From Schleiferiaceae bacterium (GTDB lineage Bacteria > Bacteroidota > Bacteroidia > Flavobacteriales > Schleiferiaceae), in NCBI GenBank assembly GCA_051859825.1, contig JBHYFA010000001.1, forward strand, positions 36,268-100,267: a stretch of DNA of 64,000 nt, read 5' to 3'. Every line of letters begins with the position of its first letter. The stretch's first letter is position 1. Of this stretch, positions 27,326-32,588 are shown one piece after another. Both the position numbers and the translations under genes were made by a program. A model generated the notes under the pieces. The model was not told the origin of the DNA. It saw nothing but the letters and a program-made list of their open reading frames with translations, and did not search any database.

Positions 27326-28216
27326 ATGAAGACGAACTTCCTACGCTCATTGTATACTCAAGTAAGCAAAAATAGCATTCGCGCAATAGCCATATTTTCT
27401 ATTGTTTTCTCCCTATCTTCGTGTGAAGATGTCATTGATGTAGAACTGGAGGAAGGCCCTCTACAATTGGTGGTAAACGGGAGAATCACCGATGAAGCAC
27501 CGGCATCGGTAACCCTTAGCACAACCGCTCCTTTCTTTGAATCAGGACCAACCCCGAGAGTTTCCGGAGCCATTGTTCAATTATTTGAAGATGACAATCC
27601 ACTGGAAGCCCTAACCGAAGATCCTTCTAATCCCGGAAACTATATTGGAACAACGCCTGCCGAAATAGGCAAATCATACCATATCGAGATTCAATTACCC
27701 GAATCAGCTAGTCATTTTCAAGAGACATTTTGGAAGTCTATTCCAGAAAGGGTTTTTCCAATTTTTGAAATTGATTCCGTGTATTTGACTTTCATTCGCA
27801 CCCCTCCGCTCCCCGTTGGTCTTTACCTAAATTTTCAATTTCTTCGTCCTTTTCCATTCCCCTCAGGTGCGGCGTACCGCATTCAGAGAGAACTCAACGA
27901 TAGTGCTTTTTTGCAAGATTTCCTCTTCATCGAAAGTGCCGACGACCTTGAGTCGTTTCGTTTCCGTCCTCTTATAAACCAACTTATTGAGCCTGGAGAT
28001 ACCATTGCGCTTACCTTCAGCTCAATTACCTTACGATATCTCGAATATTTGACGGTAGTGTTTCAGCAGCTCAATTCCGGCGGACTATTCGACCCTCCAC
28101 CAGCACCTATACGCGGAAATGTTCAGCGTCAGGGTGGTGACGAGCGCGTAGCTCTAGGGTATTTTCACGCTTCATCCATTCGGCGAGCGGGGCTGAGAAA
28201 AGAGGAGGACGAGTAA
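27326..28216 (+). CDS. DUF4249-family lipoprotein (partner of the TonB-dependent receptor)
   Basis: Lipobox LSSC followed by EDVIDVELEEGPLQLVVNGRITDE, typical of the DUF4249 N-terminus. Directly downstream of the receptor gene. Confidence 0.55.
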   Translation: MKTNFLRSLYTQVSKNSIRAIAIFSIVFSLSSCEDVIDVELEEGPLQLVVNGRITDEAPASVTLSTTAPFFESGPTPRVSGAIVQLFEDDNPLEALTEDPSNPGNYIGTTPAEIGKSYHIEIQLPESASHFQETFWKSIPERVFPIFEIDSVYLTFIRTPPLPVGLYLNFQFLRPFPFPSGAAYRIQRELNDSAFLQDFLFIESADDLESFRFRPLINQLIEPGDTIALTFSSITLRYLEYLTVVFQQLNSGGLFDPPPAPIRGNVQRQGGDERVALGYFHASSIRRAGLRKEEDE

Positions 28217-29217
28217 TTCTTCCCCGCATTTTGCAATTTTTCTGCTATTCTCATACGAAGTTTTGGAGGCCCTAGCACTTCGATTGCATCACCAAACCCG
28301 AGTATCAAACGCTCTAGTTCGAAGTTCAATTGAACATTAATGGTAATTATGATACTCCGGTTTTCAAATTCTTTTTGTAGTTCCTGAGTATGATGAAGGG
28401 GCTTGGTGAGCACGTATGGTGCATTGGAAGAATTTACTTTTAAAGTTACCTTCCGAACCCTTGAATTGGGTGTTACGGTAACACCATATACCTTGGCAAA
28501 ATGAGCATCAAGATCGAAGTCTTCTTCCAAATACGGCGTTTTGAAATCATAATCCAACGCTTCAATGCGGTCTAAGGCCAAATTATTGACGGGGTGGGAA
28601 GCTTGGCGTTTACCCAGCACAAACCATCGATTATTGAACTCCTTCAGTGCGAAGGGGTGAAACAAAAAGCTGCTGGATTCCCTAGCCACGAAAGAACGGT
28701 AGGTAACAACCAGCACAACCTTTTTGATGATGGCTTGATAAATTTCGTCTAGGTAATGAAGCCCCTTTAGTCTTTCGTTTTTGTCGAAGTGAATAACCTG
28801 TCGCGACTGGTTTTTCTCCGCGTAAATTTTATCCTCCAACCGCTGAACGATATCCGAAACATCGCTAAAAAGGGAAAAATCTTTAAACTGCTTGAGCATG
28901 GAAACCGCTTCAGTCAACGTGTTGATGTCGGTATCATTAAGTGGTGTATCCGTAATGCTAAAATCGTCGTCGGCATAGCGGTAATACTTACGTTCGTAAA
29001 CTTCGATGGGCGCATTGTATCCCAACTTTTCACTGCGCATCAACTGTATATCGAGCTGTACGGTGCGCTTGCTGATGGGCACTTTTTTTCCTTCAAACTC
29101 GTACAGCGCATCCGAACAGGCTTCAATCAAATCTTCCAACGTCCACCTTCTAAAGCGGTTTTGCAGGCACTTATCAATTGTTTTATAACGGATTAAGGCG
29201 TTCTTGTTTTGCGGCAT
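28165..29217 (-). CDS. WYL-domain transcriptional regulator (wHTH-WYL-WCX architecture)
   Basis: N-terminal winged HTH (ALIRYKTIDKCLQ...KRTVQLDIQLMR). Central WYL-like region (...LVVTYRSF...HPFALKEFNNRWFVLG). 350 aa. Divergent from rtcB. Confidence 0.6.
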   Translation of the reverse strand: MPQNKNALIRYKTIDKCLQNRFRRWTLEDLIEACSDALYEFEGKKVPISKRTVQLDIQLMRSEKLGYNAPIEVYERKYYRYADDDFSITDTPLNDTDINTLTEAVSMLKQFKDFSLFSDVSDIVQRLEDKIYAEKNQSRQVIHFDKNERLKGLHYLDEIYQAIIKKVVLVVTYRSFVARESSSFLFHPFALKEFNNRWFVLGKRQASHPVNNLALDRIEALDYDFKTPYLEEDFDLDAHFAKVYGVTVTPNSRVRKVTLKVNSSNAPYVLTKPLHHTQELQKEFENRSIIITINVQLNFELERLILGFGDAIEVLGPPKLRMRIAEKLQNAGKNYSSSSFLSPARRMDEA

Positions 29218-29316
29218 TGCTGTTTATTTTCCACAAAAAAACAACCCCACAAGAAACTACGCAAATAGATTGCGCAGTCGTTTTAAAATATTTGCCCAAT
29301 CAAAAAAACGAACGTT

Positions 29317-30726
29317 ATGAAAACGATTACCGGAAAAGATTTGCGAAACATTGGATGGGAAGAAAATGCCAGTTTGGGACAAGCACTTAAAATCATCGAG
29401 TGCAGTAAAGTGAACATGTCGCTTGATACGTTGACGTTGTTGTACCAAAACCCGGAAGATTTTGTCATCAACCCCGTTTACGGTGAAATGGCCGAAATGC
29501 TGATTGCACATCGCGAAAGCATAAAAGACGACATTATTCCCATAGCCGAATCAGGTGGAGAATACAAAAAGTACGGCGAAGAACACATTGAAGAAGGTGC
29601 TCGTAAACAAATGGAAGTGGCCATGCGCTTGCCGGTAACGCGTGCGGGCGCCCTTATGCCCGATGCGCATCAAGGTTACGGCTTGCCCATTGGTGGGGTT
29701 TTGGCAACCAATAACGCCGTTATACCCTTTGGTGTAGGGGTGGATATTGGGTGTAGAATGGCGTTATCGGTATTCGATATGCCGGAAGATGATTTTTATC
29801 TCAACCACGATAAATTCAAACGTGAACTCATCGCTCATACGCGCTTTGGCGCGGGCCACGGGTTTGTACGCAAGCATCGCAGCGAACACGAAATCCTCGA
29901 CCATAAATTGTTTGACGAAAATCACTTCGTAGGCAATTTAAAAGACAAAGCCTGGAGTCAACTTGGGTCTTCTGGTGGAGGGAATCACTTTGTGGAATTT
30001 GGTATTCTGGATTTTGCCGAAGACGATGCCGAATTGAACATCCCTAAAGGAAAATACGTAGCCTTGCTTACCCACTCCGGATCACGCGGGTTGGGGGCAA
30101 CCATTGCCGGACATTACACCAAGCTCGCTAAGGAAGTGTGTAAACTCCCCGACGAAGCCAAGAATCTCGCCTATTTGGATTTAAACTCCGAACTCGGTCA
30201 GGAGTACTGGGCAGCGATGAACTTGGCCGGCGATTATGCGTCGGCTTGTCACGAGATCATCCACCAAAAACTGACCAAAGCGCTGGGATTAATCCCGTTG
30301 GCAAAAGTGGAAAACCACCACAACTTCGCCTGGAAGGAAACCATCAACGGCGAGGAAGTGATTGTTCATCGCAAAGGCGCAACACCGGCAGCCAAGGGTG
30401 TTATGGGCATCATTCCCGGCAGCATGACCGCCCCCGGATTTTTGGTACGCGGAAAGGGTGAAGCAGAAGCCATCAATTCCGCTTCGCACGGTGCAGGCCG
30501 ACAAATGAGTCGAACTAAAGCCAAGAAGTCGGTAACCCGCACCGAGCTTAAGCAGGTACTAAAAGACCACGGCGTTACCCTCATCGGTGCCGGGTTAGAC
30601 GAAGCGCCAATGGCCTATAAAGACATCCATTTGGTGATGGAAGCCCAAAAGGATTTGGTCGATGTCGTTGCCAAGTTTAGTCCAAAAATGGTTCGCATGG
30701 CCGATGATGGTAGTCGTGAAGATTAG
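29317..30726 (+). CDS. rtcB: RNA-splicing ligase RtcB
   Basis: Metal/GTP-binding motifs DAHQGYGLPIGGV, GGGNHF, HRKGAT, SHGAGR (His nucleophile region). 469 aa. Confidence 0.9.
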   Translation: MKTITGKDLRNIGWEENASLGQALKIIECSKVNMSLDTLTLLYQNPEDFVINPVYGEMAEMLIAHRESIKDDIIPIAESGGEYKKYGEEHIEEGARKQMEVAMRLPVTRAGALMPDAHQGYGLPIGGVLATNNAVIPFGVGVDIGCRMALSVFDMPEDDFYLNHDKFKRELIAHTRFGAGHGFVRKHRSEHEILDHKLFDENHFVGNLKDKAWSQLGSSGGGNHFVEFGILDFAEDDAELNIPKGKYVALLTHSGSRGLGATIAGHYTKLAKEVCKLPDEAKNLAYLDLNSELGQEYWAAMNLAGDYASACHEIIHQKLTKALGLIPLAKVENHHNFAWKETINGEEVIVHRKGATPAAKGVMGIIPGSMTAPGFLVRGKGEAEAINSASHGAGRQMSRTKAKKSVTRTELKQVLKDHGVTLIGAGLDEAPMAYKDIHLVMEAQKDLVDVVAKFSPKMVRMADDGSRED

Positions 30727-30750
30727 GCAATCCATGCGACACCGTAAAAT

Positions 30751-30876
30751 CATAGTTGCTAGGCTAAAAATTTCGAGAGCAAGGCTTGCGAATGATTAAA
30801 AAGCGGAGTTTACGTTTGGTAAATGAGCATTTTTAAGCATTCGCGTAACGCAGCTATCGGAATTTTTAGACAGCAA
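30751..30876. repeat. Full-length variant of the REP/MITE-like element with a compensatory central hairpin
   Basis: TAGTTGCTAGGCTAAAAATTTCGAGAGC...GCGAATGATTAAAAA / TTTTTAAGCATTCGC...CAGCTATCGGAATTTTTAGACAGCAAC. The stem halves co-vary relative to the 21.6-kb copies. Starts 25 nt after the rtcB stop. Confidence 0.65.
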
Positions 30877-31011
30877 CAAATATTGAGGGAGGCTTGATGC
30901 GTGTTTCTGTATAGCACCATTGCCGTGTGCGCTCCACGTGGGTGGATTGCGCTTCACCGTTCACCTCCTCTTGATGGTTTTCGGTCGTTTTCCTCAAAAT
31001 GACCACCAAGC

Positions 31012-31110
31012 GCTATATGTCGTGGGTTCGATTCCCACCTGTGATTTTCACAGTAGCTCAGTTGGTTAGAGCAATAGTTTATGGCGGAGGTTCGAATCCT
31101 CCACGCAGTT
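31012..31110 (+). pseudogene. tRNA-derived fragments: X 3'-half (anticodon 3'-stem, variable loop, T-arm GTGGGTTCGATTCCCAC, acceptor), then X 5'-half (acceptor, D-arm TAGCTCAGTTGGTTAGAGC), fused to Y T-arm (GGAGGTTCGAATCCTCC) and acceptor
   Basis: Canonical D-arm and T-arm consensus on the + strand, but no complete cloverleaf. 31047-31053 pairs with 31039-31045, and 31103-31109 pairs with 31116-31122, so the 3' halves precede their cognate 5' halves. Confidence 0.4.
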
Positions 31111-31115
31111 GTAAA

Positions 31116-31190
31116 GTTGCGTTAGCTCAGTGGCAGAGCACTACACTGTTAATGTAGTTTGACTGGAGGTTGTATTCGCTCCTTAAACGA
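31116..31190 (+). tRNA. Degenerate tRNA-Asn(GTT)-like gene (probable pseudogene)
   Basis: Acceptor GTTGCGT. D-arm TAGCTCAGTGGCAGAGC. Intact anticodon stem-loop CTACA-CTGTTAA-TGTAG (anticodon GTT). The T-arm is corrupted (GGAGGTTGTATTCGCTCC, an apparent local inversion of the TTCGAAT loop) and no matching 3' acceptor follows. Confidence 0.35.
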
Positions 31191-31453
31191 ATACGCTTTT
31201 GAGAAACGCGTTGGATGTGGCCGGTTGCGGCAAATGGCACAAGTGGTCATTTGCACAACAGCCCAAATCCAACCAGCAAGGAAACCTCTGTTCGTCCAGA
31301 CGCGGCAAATCCTTGGGGTATGACAATGCTATGACTTGAAAAAGACCCGCAAGCATTTGCTGTGAAACGACCGCAAGCTTCCTTCCGTTGCGATGAAGGT
31401 GGCTTACATTCAATGCGTTTCTTTTTTTATTAACCCTTAAAACCTCAACGATT

Positions 31454-32548
31454 ATGAAAATTGTTACCATCAAAACCGCTCAGATTGGTTTACTTATTAG
31501 AAACCGTAAAGTTGATCGACTTCTTTACGAAGGCACCCACTTGACTTTGGGTTTGCACAAGGTAGAAATACACGAAACCCGCGAATTATTTATCTCCCAA
31601 ATCGACATCGACATCTTGTTGGAAAGCCCTTTAATGGCGAAGGCTTTAGAAATTGTTGACGTTCCCGAAAGTCACATCTGCATGGTGTTTAAAAAAGGCA
31701 ATTTGCACAACGTATTGCCCGAAGGGAAGTACGCCTTCTGGAAAGATAAACACCCTTTCAGCTTTCGCGTATTGAACACTGCCGGTATGGATATCCCTGC
31801 CGATCTTCCCCGTCATCAGTTGGAGCACTACCTCATGCAACCTTTTGTACGGAAGTTTAACGTGGCCAATGCGCATACCGGGGTGTTGTTTGTGGACGGG
31901 AAATTTCACAGCACTTTCAAATCAGGAAGCGTGTTTTTCTGGAACAACCGCACTTCCATGGAGATGCAAAGCGTTGACTTGCGTCGTCAGCATTTGGAAA
32001 TATCCGGGCAAGAATTGCTTACCAAGGACAAGGCCGGCATTCGGATCAACTTCTTTGTGCAATTCCGCGTGGTGGACATTGAAAAAGCCATCATTGACAA
32101 CAAGGATTTCCGCAATCAGTTGTACGTATTGATGCAGTTGGCTTTGCGTGCCTACATAGGCGGCTACAATCTCGACGAGTTGTTGAGCAAAAAAGACCGC
32201 ATTACCGACATGATATTGGAGGCCACCGCCGAGAAGATTGCTGCTTTAGGTATTGAAGTTTCCGACGCCGGTATTCGCGACATCATTTTGCCCGGCGACA
32301 TGAAGGAGATTATGAATCAGGTGTTGATTGCGGAGAAAAAGGCGCAGGCCAACAGCATTTTGCGTCGTGAAGAAACCGCATCCACCCGAAGCTTACTCAA
32401 CACCGCCAAGTTGATGCAAGACAACGACATGTTGTGGAAGCTCAAGGAGATGGAGTACGTGGAAAAAATATCCGAACGCATTGGCGAAATCACCATTTCC
32501 GGAAGGGGAAATGTAGTGAATGAGTTGAAGGAAATTTTTGTGAAGTAA
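31454..32548 (+). CDS. SPFH/band-7 (stomatin-prohibitin-like) domain protein with an N-terminal extension of about 170 aa
   Basis: C-terminal half has the SPFH fold pattern (TKDKAGIRINFFVQFRVVDIEKAI...ALRAYIGGYNLDELL...KIAALGIEV). 364 aa. Confidence 0.7.
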   Translation: MKIVTIKTAQIGLLIRNRKVDRLLYEGTHLTLGLHKVEIHETRELFISQIDIDILLESPLMAKALEIVDVPESHICMVFKKGNLHNVLPEGKYAFWKDKHPFSFRVLNTAGMDIPADLPRHQLEHYLMQPFVRKFNVANAHTGVLFVDGKFHSTFKSGSVFFWNNRTSMEMQSVDLRRQHLEISGQELLTKDKAGIRINFFVQFRVVDIEKAIIDNKDFRNQLYVLMQLALRAYIGGYNLDELLSKKDRITDMILEATAEKIAALGIEVSDAGIRDIILPGDMKEIMNQVLIAEKKAQANSILRREETASTRSLLNTAKLMQDNDMLWKLKEMEYVEKISERIGEITISGRGNVVNELKEIFVK

Positions 32549-32588
32549 AAAAAAGCCGAACAACAAAATTGCTGTTCGGCTTTTTACT
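32547..32588. terminator. Bidirectional rho-independent terminator (AAAAAAGCCGAACAAcaaaattGCTGTTCGGCTTTTT)
   Basis: 10-bp stem flanked by an A-run and a T-run. Sits between the convergent SPFH gene and secG. Confidence 0.6.

Follow-up and report, generated by a model that had tools for sequence, protein, structure and literature searches.

A tandem permuted tRNA-like RNA between rtcB and an SPFH gene in a Schleiferiaceae bacterium, very probably a Bacteroidota form of the predicted SPFH-linked tRNA mimics

Within a 64-kb stretch of DNA from a Schleiferiaceae bacterium (hereafter the window; all coordinates are + strand positions in the whole stretch) we observed a structured element of ~300 nt at ~30897-31195 on the + strand, between rtcB, the gene for an RNA ligase, and a gene of the SPFH/Band-7 family. 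From 5' to 3' the element consists of two 5' hairpins, tRNA-like module 1, module 2 and an H-type pseudoknot, and it nearly coincides with the interval singled out by an original prediction made from the sequence of the window. We consider it very probable that the element is one structured non-coding RNA, the Bacteroidota form of the SPFH-linked tRNA-like RNA predicted under the name 'b7a-tRNA', which corresponds on the SPFH side to the Ro60/Y-RNA pair. Among these predicted, unvalidated and unannotated SPFH/Band-7-associated tRNA mimics, which are related to YrlA, it represents a new structural variant. The helices of its modules and a tertiary Levitt pair were maintained by compensatory change across diverged Bacteroidota, and the RNA was inherited together with SPFH and RtcB, under a control region linked to WYL. 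The features of the element were as follows.

30897-30920 (+): 5' hairpin Pa, pairs 30897-99/30918-20 and 30901-05/30913-17, with the near-invariant loop region UUUCUGUAUAG
30922-30960 (+): 5' stem Pb, 30922-27/30955-60, enclosing a variable hairpin; 6 pairs, 5 with compensatory changes
30983-31004 (+): candidate hairpin GGUCG-uuuuccucaaaa-UGACC, read directly from the sequence
31012-31078 (+): tRNA-like module 1, YrlA type, permuted at the anticodon loop (closing stem P1 31012-16/31074-78; variable-loop equivalent 31017-21; T-arm 31022-38; closed acceptor hairpin 31039-53; U8/A9 31054-55; D-arm 31056-72), from alignment covariation (A1, below), Rfam YrlA and a covariance model (R1, below)
31079-31085 (+): linker UUAUGGC, acting as the variable loop of module 2; C31085, its position 48, covaries with position 15 of D2
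31086-31158 (+): tRNA-like module 2, permuted at the variable loop (T-arm 31086-31102; closed 7-bp acceptor hairpin 31103-22, loop UGUAAA; U8/A9 31123-24; D-arm 31125-39; anticodon-like arm 31140-58, 7-nt loop CUGUUAA), from a shuffle-tested acceptor hairpin and Levitt covariation
31165-31195 (+): H-type pseudoknot, S1 31165-68 (GGAG)/31179-82 (CUCC), S2 31171-78 (UGUAUUCG)/31188-95 (CGAAUACG), loop 3 UUAAA 31183-87

The tRNA motifs listed by the original prediction were all found on the + strand where it had placed them. These were T-arm 1 (31022-31038, GTGGG-TTCGATT-CCCAC), D-arm 1 (31054-31072, TAGCTCAGTTGGTTAGAGC), T-arm 2 (31086-31102, GGAGG-TTCGAAT-CCTCC), D-arm 2 (31123-31139) and a GTT-loop hairpin (31140-31158). 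Its proposal that 3' acceptor strands pair with 5' acceptor strands encoded just downstream also held, with local hairpins at 31039-44/31048-53 (6 bp, loop UUU) and 31103-09/31116-22 (7 bp, two of them G-U, loop UGUAAA). No complete cloverleaf could be folded, as it had stated, and ARAGORN called no tRNA genes in the whole 64 kb. A simple T-arm/D-arm pattern scan of the window found a T-then-D cluster here only, the few other matches being isolated single motifs. Rfam at gathering thresholds gave no match in the window. A permissive Rfam scan of 30500-31700 (1.2 kb, the length to which its E-values refer) aligned YrlA full length at 30992-31100 with 49.4 bits and an E-value of 8.6e-10 (gathering score 69), together with partial, sub-threshold tRNA matches of 28.9 and 24.9 bits (gathering score 29).

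The window was compared with 80 loci (L numbers below) carrying RtcB relatives of 55-71% identity from Flavobacterium, Pedobacter, Sphingobacterium, Chitinophaga, Saprospiraceae and others, and operon classes were assigned from T-arm/D-arm scans and BLAST synteny. Two further loci (L081, L082) were 100% identical to the window and added no information. Thirty loci fell with the window in class B, in which an SPFH homologue was preceded on the same strand by a T-D-T(-D) cluster starting 350-530 nt upstream. In each of the 28 loci that have a close SPFH homologue and could be evaluated, the RNA was observed upstream of SPFH, and the class-B arrangement held with rtcB upstream (window, L010, L048, L050, L051) or downstream (Pedobacter and others). 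Ten loci formed class A, with a TROVE+vWA Rsr gene, then one to three YrlA-like units and then rtcB. Rsr and SPFH were observed together in one locus only (L076, 205-5986), which has YrlA-like units before rtcB; this agrees with a remark in the literature that the Rsr and SPFH modules occasionally mix. Architecture and synteny of the RNA were kept across Flavobacteriia, Sphingobacteriia, Chitinophagia and Saprospiria, while the number of modules varied from three T-AS-D modules in L042 (4282-4540) to a single one in several loci, some of the single modules having an anticodon arm and pseudoknot. The loci in which the module number varied also include L029, L059, L030 and L045, and L001 (9692-9800) carried a tRNA-Leu-like unit in place of module 1, abutting the remaining module. 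Rfam at the gathering threshold returned no YrlA match in 11 related loci, and the Pedobacter homologue reached 33.4 bits against YrlA. The 'Pedo-repair' motif, considered as a possible match, was rejected when it gave no match in the Pedobacter homologue even at E <= 10.

Module 1 was assessed in a structure-blind MAFFT alignment (A1) of 24 class-B elements, in which five helices were named P1, T1, AS1, D1 and T2. Standard pairs occupied 96.8% of cells, compared with 41-48% when the partners were slid by 1-3 columns, compensatory (two-sided) changes occurred in 20 of the 25 pairs, and none of 500 shuffles reached any of these measures. P1, for example, was GUUGU/ACAAC, CUUGU/ACAAG, AUUGG/CCAAU or GCUA/UAGC in other loci. 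A covariance model (R1) covering P1 to T2 was trained on 23 related loci, the window not among them. It gave one significant full-length match in the window (31012-31102, 90.6 bits, E ~1e-18), the next match having an E-value of 1.2. Training members scored 78-103 bits, single-module class-B variants 45-64 and YrlA-like class-A units 28-55, and over 0.94 Mb of loci every R1 match was on the rtcB strand. The tRNA-like cluster is thus far beyond chance.

The acceptor strands paired in the permuted order. The 7 nt after T1 and the 7 nt before D1 showed in-register pairing with a mean of 5.75/7 (6/7 in the window), whereas conventional pairing of the 5' acceptor before D1 with the 3' acceptor after T2 had a family mean of 3.75/7 (2/7 in the window) against a chance value, with partners permuted between sequences, of 3.4. 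Since the first value stands well above a conventional pairing at chance level, we conclude that the closed, permuted acceptor topology is under selection. A conventional tRNA running from D1 to T2, considered on account of the marginal Rfam tRNA matches, was rejected on the same chance-level pairing in Bacteroidota.

For module 2, a perfect hairpin of at least 5 bp (AS2) started 0-1 nt after T2 in 26 of 29 homologues, compared with 14% of dinucleotide shuffles. Its sequence was different in almost every lineage, and it was followed by U8-A9 and a D-arm with the GG dinucleotide. Position 15 of the D2 loop and the base just before T2 changed together, as G:C in 8 copies and A:U in 9, accounting for all 17 copies with a canonical D2 (permutation p = 5e-5). 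This is the Levitt pair, which stabilises the L-shape of tRNA; in the window it is G31130:C31085. The base before T2 belongs to the linker from module 1 and so does not adjoin the anticodon-like arm. The covariation with this linker base identifies module 2 as a tRNA-like fold permuted at the variable loop. Most copies also had a 5-bp stem with a 7-nt loop of the form C-U-NNN-A-A, in which C32-U33 and A37-A38 were kept and the triplet was variable, and the anticodon-like stem covaried (CUACA/UGUAG, UGGA/UCCA, ACAGA/UCUGU).

The original prediction had read 31165-31195 as a third unit with an inverted T-loop. This segment forms no T-arm but a conserved H-type pseudoknot, covarying and shuffle-tested. 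Its geometry with an A-rich loop 3 scored at least 9 in 66% of 29 homologues and in 5% of 580 dinucleotide shuffles, and S2 varied in nearly every lineage (CAUCA/UGAUG, GGCCA/UGGCC, UGAGCA/UGCUCA, GUCAA/UUGAC and others). At the other end of the element, RNAalifold folded the 140 nt preceding T1, aligned blind (A2), into two helices with compensatory changes in 10 of 14 pairs. The stem of Pa was GUG/CAC in the window and GGG/CCC, CUUG/CAAG or UCCGG/CCGGA elsewhere. The UUUUCC...AAAA loop of the hairpin at 30983-31004 was also present in L003, L010 and L012 (Flavobacterium) and in L022 (a Saprospiraceae MAG).

Outside Bacteroidota, SPFH relatives of 33-37% identity in Burkholderia, E. coli and Subdoligranulum were also preceded by tRNA-like elements. 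The Burkholderia stagnalis element (L085, 4190-4300) had an extra T-arm and then a conventional cloverleaf, reported by ARAGORN as 'tRNA-???', with acceptor strands UGUUCGG/UCGAACG that pair 7/7 and an anticodon loop of 6 nt. Subdoligranulum had two T-arms, a closed acceptor hairpin and a D-like arm. A sigma-54 promoter (TGGCACGCTTCTCGCA) followed by a T-arm and a closed 7-bp hairpin was observed in E. coli (L083/L086), upstream of slipin and nucleotidyltransferase genes. This E. coli island lies between yjbD and lysC, adjoins a zeta-toxin family gene and was present in 1632 of 5426 complete genomes (~30%); there was no RtcB within 5 kb of it, and no PGAP annotation of RNA in its 530-nt gap. 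The SPFH-linked RNA family therefore has both conventional and permuted topologies, the window representing the tandem permuted form. A 2026 paper places an SPFH gene of P. aeruginosa inside an rtcR-rtcA-rtcB locus.

A Band-7-associated tRNA-like RNA, b7a-tRNA, located next to Band-7 and RtcB, was predicted by Burroughs & Aravind 2016 (NAR 44:8525), as summarized by Wang et al. 2018 (bioRxiv 10.1101/312249). According to that summary it is the proposed cognate RNA of an SPFH scaffold, parallel to Rsr (Ro60)/YrlA, and was a prediction not validated experimentally as of 2018. The window RNA agrees with the summarized description in being tRNA-like, in adjoining an SPFH/Band-7 gene and in lying in an RtcB neighbourhood, and the split between sister operons (Rsr + YrlA vs SPFH + RNA) that it reports was reproduced here. 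It differs from the RNA as summarized in its closed acceptor hairpins, its two tandem permuted modules, its 5' domain and its 3' pseudoknot. All tRNA arms and the nucleotides of the tertiary pairs are present in the window RNA, but in a permuted topology with closed acceptors. No family matching this RNA class was found in Rfam 15, and PGAP leaves the RNA unannotated.

YrlA (RF02553) is a known relative in structure. Its tRNA-like domain runs from the variable loop through the T-arm, a closed acceptor stem-loop and the D-arm to a closing helix, with reported G15:C48 / A15:U48 covariation (Chen et al. 2014, PMC4201824), so that the remark in the original prediction that permuted tRNA genes were not documented in bacteria had overlooked an RNA with this same order of T-arm, closed acceptor and D-arm. 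Enzymes that modify tRNA recognise YrlA, and where its acceptor has 7 bp, RNase P cleaves it and the CCA-adding enzyme extends it. Module 1 of the window RNA shares with YrlA the permuted fold, the closing helix resembling an anticodon stem, the invariant T-loop and D-loop nucleotides and the RtcB operon, and module 2 shows the 15:48 covariation reported for YrlA. Unlike YrlA, the window RNA is without the Ro60-binding helix and GNCGAA motif and carries, in addition, module 2 with its anticodon-like arm, the pseudoknot and a 5' domain of a different kind; its partner is SPFH and not TROVE, and rsr was not found in the 64 kb.

Other RNAs also carry tRNA-like domains. The tRNA-like domain of tmRNA (including two-piece permuted tmRNA), viral 3' tRNA-like structures and mascRNA all engage tRNA-binding proteins by mimicry of the T-arm, D-loop and acceptor, and tmRNA pairs its tRNA-like domain with pseudoknots. 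The window RNA has the same kind of mimicry and, as in tmRNA, the combination of a tRNA-like domain with a pseudoknot. It differs from these RNAs in having no tag reading frame (ARAGORN found no tmRNA), in its tandem duplication and operon context, and in its closed acceptor end, which makes aminoacylation impossible without cleavage.

The genes and further features around the RNA were as follows.

28165-29217 (-): divergent WYL/WCX-domain transcription regulator gene, 350 aa (Pfam WYL 1.5e-08, WCX 5.2e-13)
29257-29277 (no strand): operator-like palindrome CTACGCAA-N6-TTGCGCAG and then a ...TTTG box, between the WYL gene and rtcB
29317-30726 (+): rtcB, RNA 3'-phosphate/2',3'-cyclic-phosphate ligase, 469 aa (Pfam RtcB 5.1e-85)
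30751-30881 (+): long imperfect hairpin of ~131 nt, inverted-repeat arms 30764-80 and 30853-69
31381-31399 (+): short conserved block CCUUCCGUUGCGAUGAAGG (UUCCGY...GAUGAA), 55-75 nt 5' of the SPFH start codon
31454-32548 (+): SPFH/Band-7 (stomatin-like, 'slipin') gene, 364 aa (Pfam Band_7 7.6e-29)
32550-32585 (no strand; the scan called the - strand): strong hairpin terminator, 16 bp, starting 2 nt past the SPFH stop codon

The RNA directly follows rtcB, and its 3' end is 259 nt from the start of the Band_7 gene on the same strand. A divergent WYL homologue was present in most of the related loci by synteny comparison. The same palindrome was observed 5' of rtcB in rtcB-first loci, 5' of the RNA in RNA-first loci (L003, L012, L015, L017, L019, L028, L041) and 5' of rsr in Rsr-type loci (L002, L006, L013, L014, L024). 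Palindrome and box were frequently present in two copies in the gap that separates the divergent WYL gene from the first operon element and, judged by this placement, probably represent a WYL operator with a Bacteroidota-type operon promoter. No integrase was found among the neighbouring ORFs tested.

Homologues of the SPFH protein are labeled 'slipin family protein' in the source records. The protein of the window resembled PH stomatin 3bk6 (8e-21), and the relatives matched included multi-chain stomatin, QmcA and HflK entries. Stomatin-family SPFH proteins assemble large oligomeric rings or cages. No membrane helix was predicted in the SPFH protein (maximum hydropathy 1.19), no Pfam family matched its N-terminal 136 aa, and no SPFH relatives were found in the phage collection.

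Eleven class-B operons carried two tandem genes for RlaP ('RNA repair pathway DNA polymerase beta family') nucleotidyltransferases between SPFH and rtcB (L015 4169-5978, L077 4175-5967 and 9 further loci); these genes were absent from the window. Genuine tRNA arrays of 4-7 genes on the operon strand were observed in or beside related RtcB/SPFH operons (L010 8334-9101, L061 5397-5940, L017 7607-8073, L001 8997-9727), with tRNAs including Lys-UUU, Asp-GUC, His-GUG, Tyr-GUA, Asn-GUU, Gln-UUG, Arg, Phe, Pro and Leu. A good number of the tRNAs named, namely many of them, are typical anticodon-nuclease targets. The arrays fit a response to tRNA damage.

The RNA is most likely a tRNA-mimic partner of SPFH and RtcB in a tRNA-damage response, and the explanation as a whole, identity and partner role together, appears to us probable. 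One WYL-controlled promoter would drive an rtcB-RNA-SPFH transcript, from which the RNA would be excised, as YrlA is from rsr-yrlBA-rtcBA. The tRNA-like domains would fold into L-shapes that tRNA-recognising proteins could bind, their closed acceptor ends would bar the RNA from aminoacylation and translation, and the pseudoknot and 5' hairpins may protect its ends. A soluble, ring- or cage-forming stomatin-like SPFH protein could bind the RNA to give a Ro/Y-like ribonucleoprotein, which would show tRNA-shaped surfaces to RtcB and other tRNA-handling enzymes. RtcB seals breaks with 2',3'-cyclic-phosphate and 5'-OH ends, and the ribonucleoprotein might assist or direct it in the response to tRNA damage as a scaffold, a substrate mimic or a decoy for anticodon nucleases. 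This scaffold or decoy mechanism is a tentative proposal, held with much less confidence than the identity of the RNA. In Salmonella, tRNA fragments induce the rsr-yrlBA-rtcBA operon (Hughes et al. 2020).

RtcB operons are a widespread bacterial RNA-repair and stress system with poorly understood cofactors, a gap that extends to what the tRNA-like domain does in the better-known Ro60/Y-RNA pair. The RNA described here replaces Rsr/YrlA in otherwise equivalent operons with a shared WYL regulator and operator, and the locus yields a covariation-supported structural model for the less studied SPFH-linked RNA. This model gives direct access to the questions of RNA binding by SPFH/stomatin rings, of tRNA mimics as scaffold, decoy or sensor, and of the action of RNase P or RtcB on them. 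The tandem permuted architecture with an anticodon-like arm and pseudoknot is apparently absent from Rfam and from genome annotation. A curated model would fill an annotation gap, given that there is no Rfam match or PGAP annotation although about 30% of complete E. coli genomes carry a related element upstream of a slipin gene.

Several points weigh against our interpretation. The window RNA was equated with b7a-tRNA through a second-hand summary only, and the phrase given there, 'strongly resembles an authentic tRNA', suits the Burkholderia cloverleaf better than the permuted form of the window. Related sequences share ancestry, and shuffles consequently overstate independence in the covariation statistics. 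The 3' half (D2, anticodon arm and pseudoknot) was assessed by constrained search and shuffles and not by blind alignment; MAFFT alignments of this half put D2 and the anticodon arm out of register by 1 nt, even between close relatives. That a discrete, stable RNA exists we infer from its conservation. To our knowledge no SPFH protein is known to bind RNA, and the scaffold idea is a published prediction. Finally, no terminator ever separates the RNA from the SPFH gene, which keeps a purely cis-acting leader among the candidates.

Such a leader is the main rival, although we consider it unlikely. The tRNA-like domains would then sense damaged tRNA, a tRNA-binding protein or SPFH itself and control SPFH translation or transcript stability, with no free RNA being formed. 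The element is always directly upstream of SPFH on the same strand, within the constrained 350-530 nt, and it forms the 5' end of the operon transcript in RNA-first loci. No terminator-like site was found between the rtcB stop and the SPFH start, and the small UUCCGY...GAUGAA block is conserved just 5' of the start codon. This block lies 40-100 nt 5' of the SPFH start across 20 loci, with the similar CUUCCGCGACGG in E. coli (L083 ~4965), and is the sole conserved block between pseudoknot and SPFH start in the 22 loci compared. The remainder of the ~250-nt spacer is variable, however, and an expression platform would not usually be so. The pseudoknot that forms the 3' boundary of the element resembles a protective end structure, which would suit a free RNA better than a leader, and YrlA is likewise embedded in rsr-yrlBA-rtcBA operons and yet is a stable, trans-acting RNA. 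A second spacer motif, YUGAAAA-N-GNAUACCG, was common to some Bacteroidota and Subdoligranulum.

A more specific role for the RNA as partner of SPFH and RtcB can be envisaged, in which it serves as bait and reporter for tRNA damage. The anticodon-like loop would be cut by anticodon nucleases, the fragments held on the SPFH ring would signal to WYL, and RtcB would reseal the RNA and reset the system. This idea rests on the loop of module 2, which keeps tRNA geometry (U33, A37-A38) on an L-shaped body with a triplet that varies between lineages. If true, it would describe a self-contained RNA sensor and decoy with 2',3'-cyclic-phosphate fragments as the signal and a ligase as the reset enzyme, but we regard it as speculative and improbable.

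The element might alternatively be an ordinary YrlA Y RNA whose Ro60/Rsr partner is encoded at another place in the genome. The full-length YrlA alignment over module 1 would fit such an RNA, as would the adjacent RtcB, which is found in many rsr-yrl-rtcB loci; the YrlA score was nevertheless under the gathering threshold of 69. The YrlA motif 5' GNCGAAN0-1G and the terminal helix are implicated in the binding of Ro60 (Chen et al. 2014, PMC4201824), and in the YrlA model alignment the motif position falls on CUCAAAAUG in the window. A relaxed form of the motif, GYCGUAR, was observed in 16 of 17 Rsr-linked class-A units and in 1 of 24 class-B elements; within the 140 nt 5' of T1 it was absent from the window and from 23 of the 24 class-B elements. 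The 3' strand of the would-be Ro stem is taken by T-arm 2. A YrlA gene would be expected on the same strand as a Ro60/TROVE gene and no more than ~4 kb from it; Pfam detected no TROVE/Ro60 domain in the flanking ORFs tested, and tblastn with two Bacteroidota Rsr proteins found no Rsr in the 64 kb (best E 0.05). The RNA also co-occurs with SPFH and not with Rsr (30 vs 10 loci, with both in one locus). With no Ro motif and no rsr in the window we conclude that the element is not a Ro60 Y RNA, an assignment we rate as very unlikely.

Permuted tRNA genes were among the explanations offered by the original prediction, and its observation that the 3' half precedes the 5' half was borne out in both modules, whereas a decoding product is very unlikely. 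Circularly permuted tRNA genes in Cyanidioschyzon merolae and some archaea likewise encode the T-arm and 3' acceptor strand 5' of the 5' acceptor, D-arm and anticodon arm, and they give mature, aminoacylated decoding tRNAs of conserved identity via circular intermediates. Module 2 could in this way be cut, joined at the variable loop (e.g. by RtcB), opened by RNase P/Z and supplied with CCA to give tRNA-Asn(GUU). All parts of a tRNA are present in it, with a 7-bp acceptor, canonical D- and T-arms, U33 and A37-A38; an RNA ligase gene adjoins, and the 7-bp-acceptor YrlA of M. smegmatis is an RNase P substrate to which CCA is added. Within the family, however, the triplet varies freely, the loops of orthologues containing CAA (the commonest), UUU, CAU, GUA, UAG, GAA, GUG, UCA or GUU. 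L001 is nearly identical to the window in AS2, D2 and anticodon-stem sequences and has UUU where the window has GUU, and because the triplet changes between such near-identical homologues we conclude that the RNA is not a decoding tRNA. The anticodon arm of the window is, moreover, unlike that of genuine Flavobacterium tRNA-Asn. Acceptor hairpins measured 4-7 bp across orthologues and only 4-6 bp in many, some anticodon-like loops had 6 or 8 nt (including L020), and a clean anticodon-like arm was not parsed in about one third of the copies. The extra domains, with a conserved pseudoknot directly 3' of module 2, also set the family apart from permuted tRNA genes, and a decoding tRNA-Asn made from module 2 is in our judgment exceedingly improbable. 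The loop triplets were also examined for an enrichment of known anticodon-nuclease targets; they were simply diverse, with no support either way.

The modules may have derived long ago from tRNA genes, as the genuine tRNA arrays in related operons and the tRNA-Leu-like unit abutting a module in L001 would make plausible, but a decayed tandem array or att-site scars, as the original prediction had also proposed, has next to no likelihood and is already refuted by covariation, with strong purifying and compensatory selection on every helix (96.8% pairing, 20/25 pairs compensatory, covarying pseudoknot and Levitt pair), fixed SPFH synteny and architecture across four Bacteroidota classes and no integrase in the ORFs tested.

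The original prediction had placed the cluster beside a repeat element, which corresponds to the long hairpin at 30751-30881. This inverted repeat was single-copy, with no second copy in the 64-kb window and no sign of a dispersed repeat within it. The 170-nt segment around it (30727-30896) had a minimum free energy of -55 kcal/mol, and unrelated stable hairpins occupied the equivalent position between rtcB and the RNA in other rtcB-first loci. The hairpin is possibly a processing site or an insulator. A second long hairpin (GUUGGAUGUGGCCGGUUGCGGCAAAUG...CAUUUGCACAACAGCCCAAAUCCAAC) was observed at 31211-31275, just 3' of the pseudoknot; it was not conserved in other loci and gave rise to spurious minus-strand matches to microRNA families in the permissive Rfam scan.

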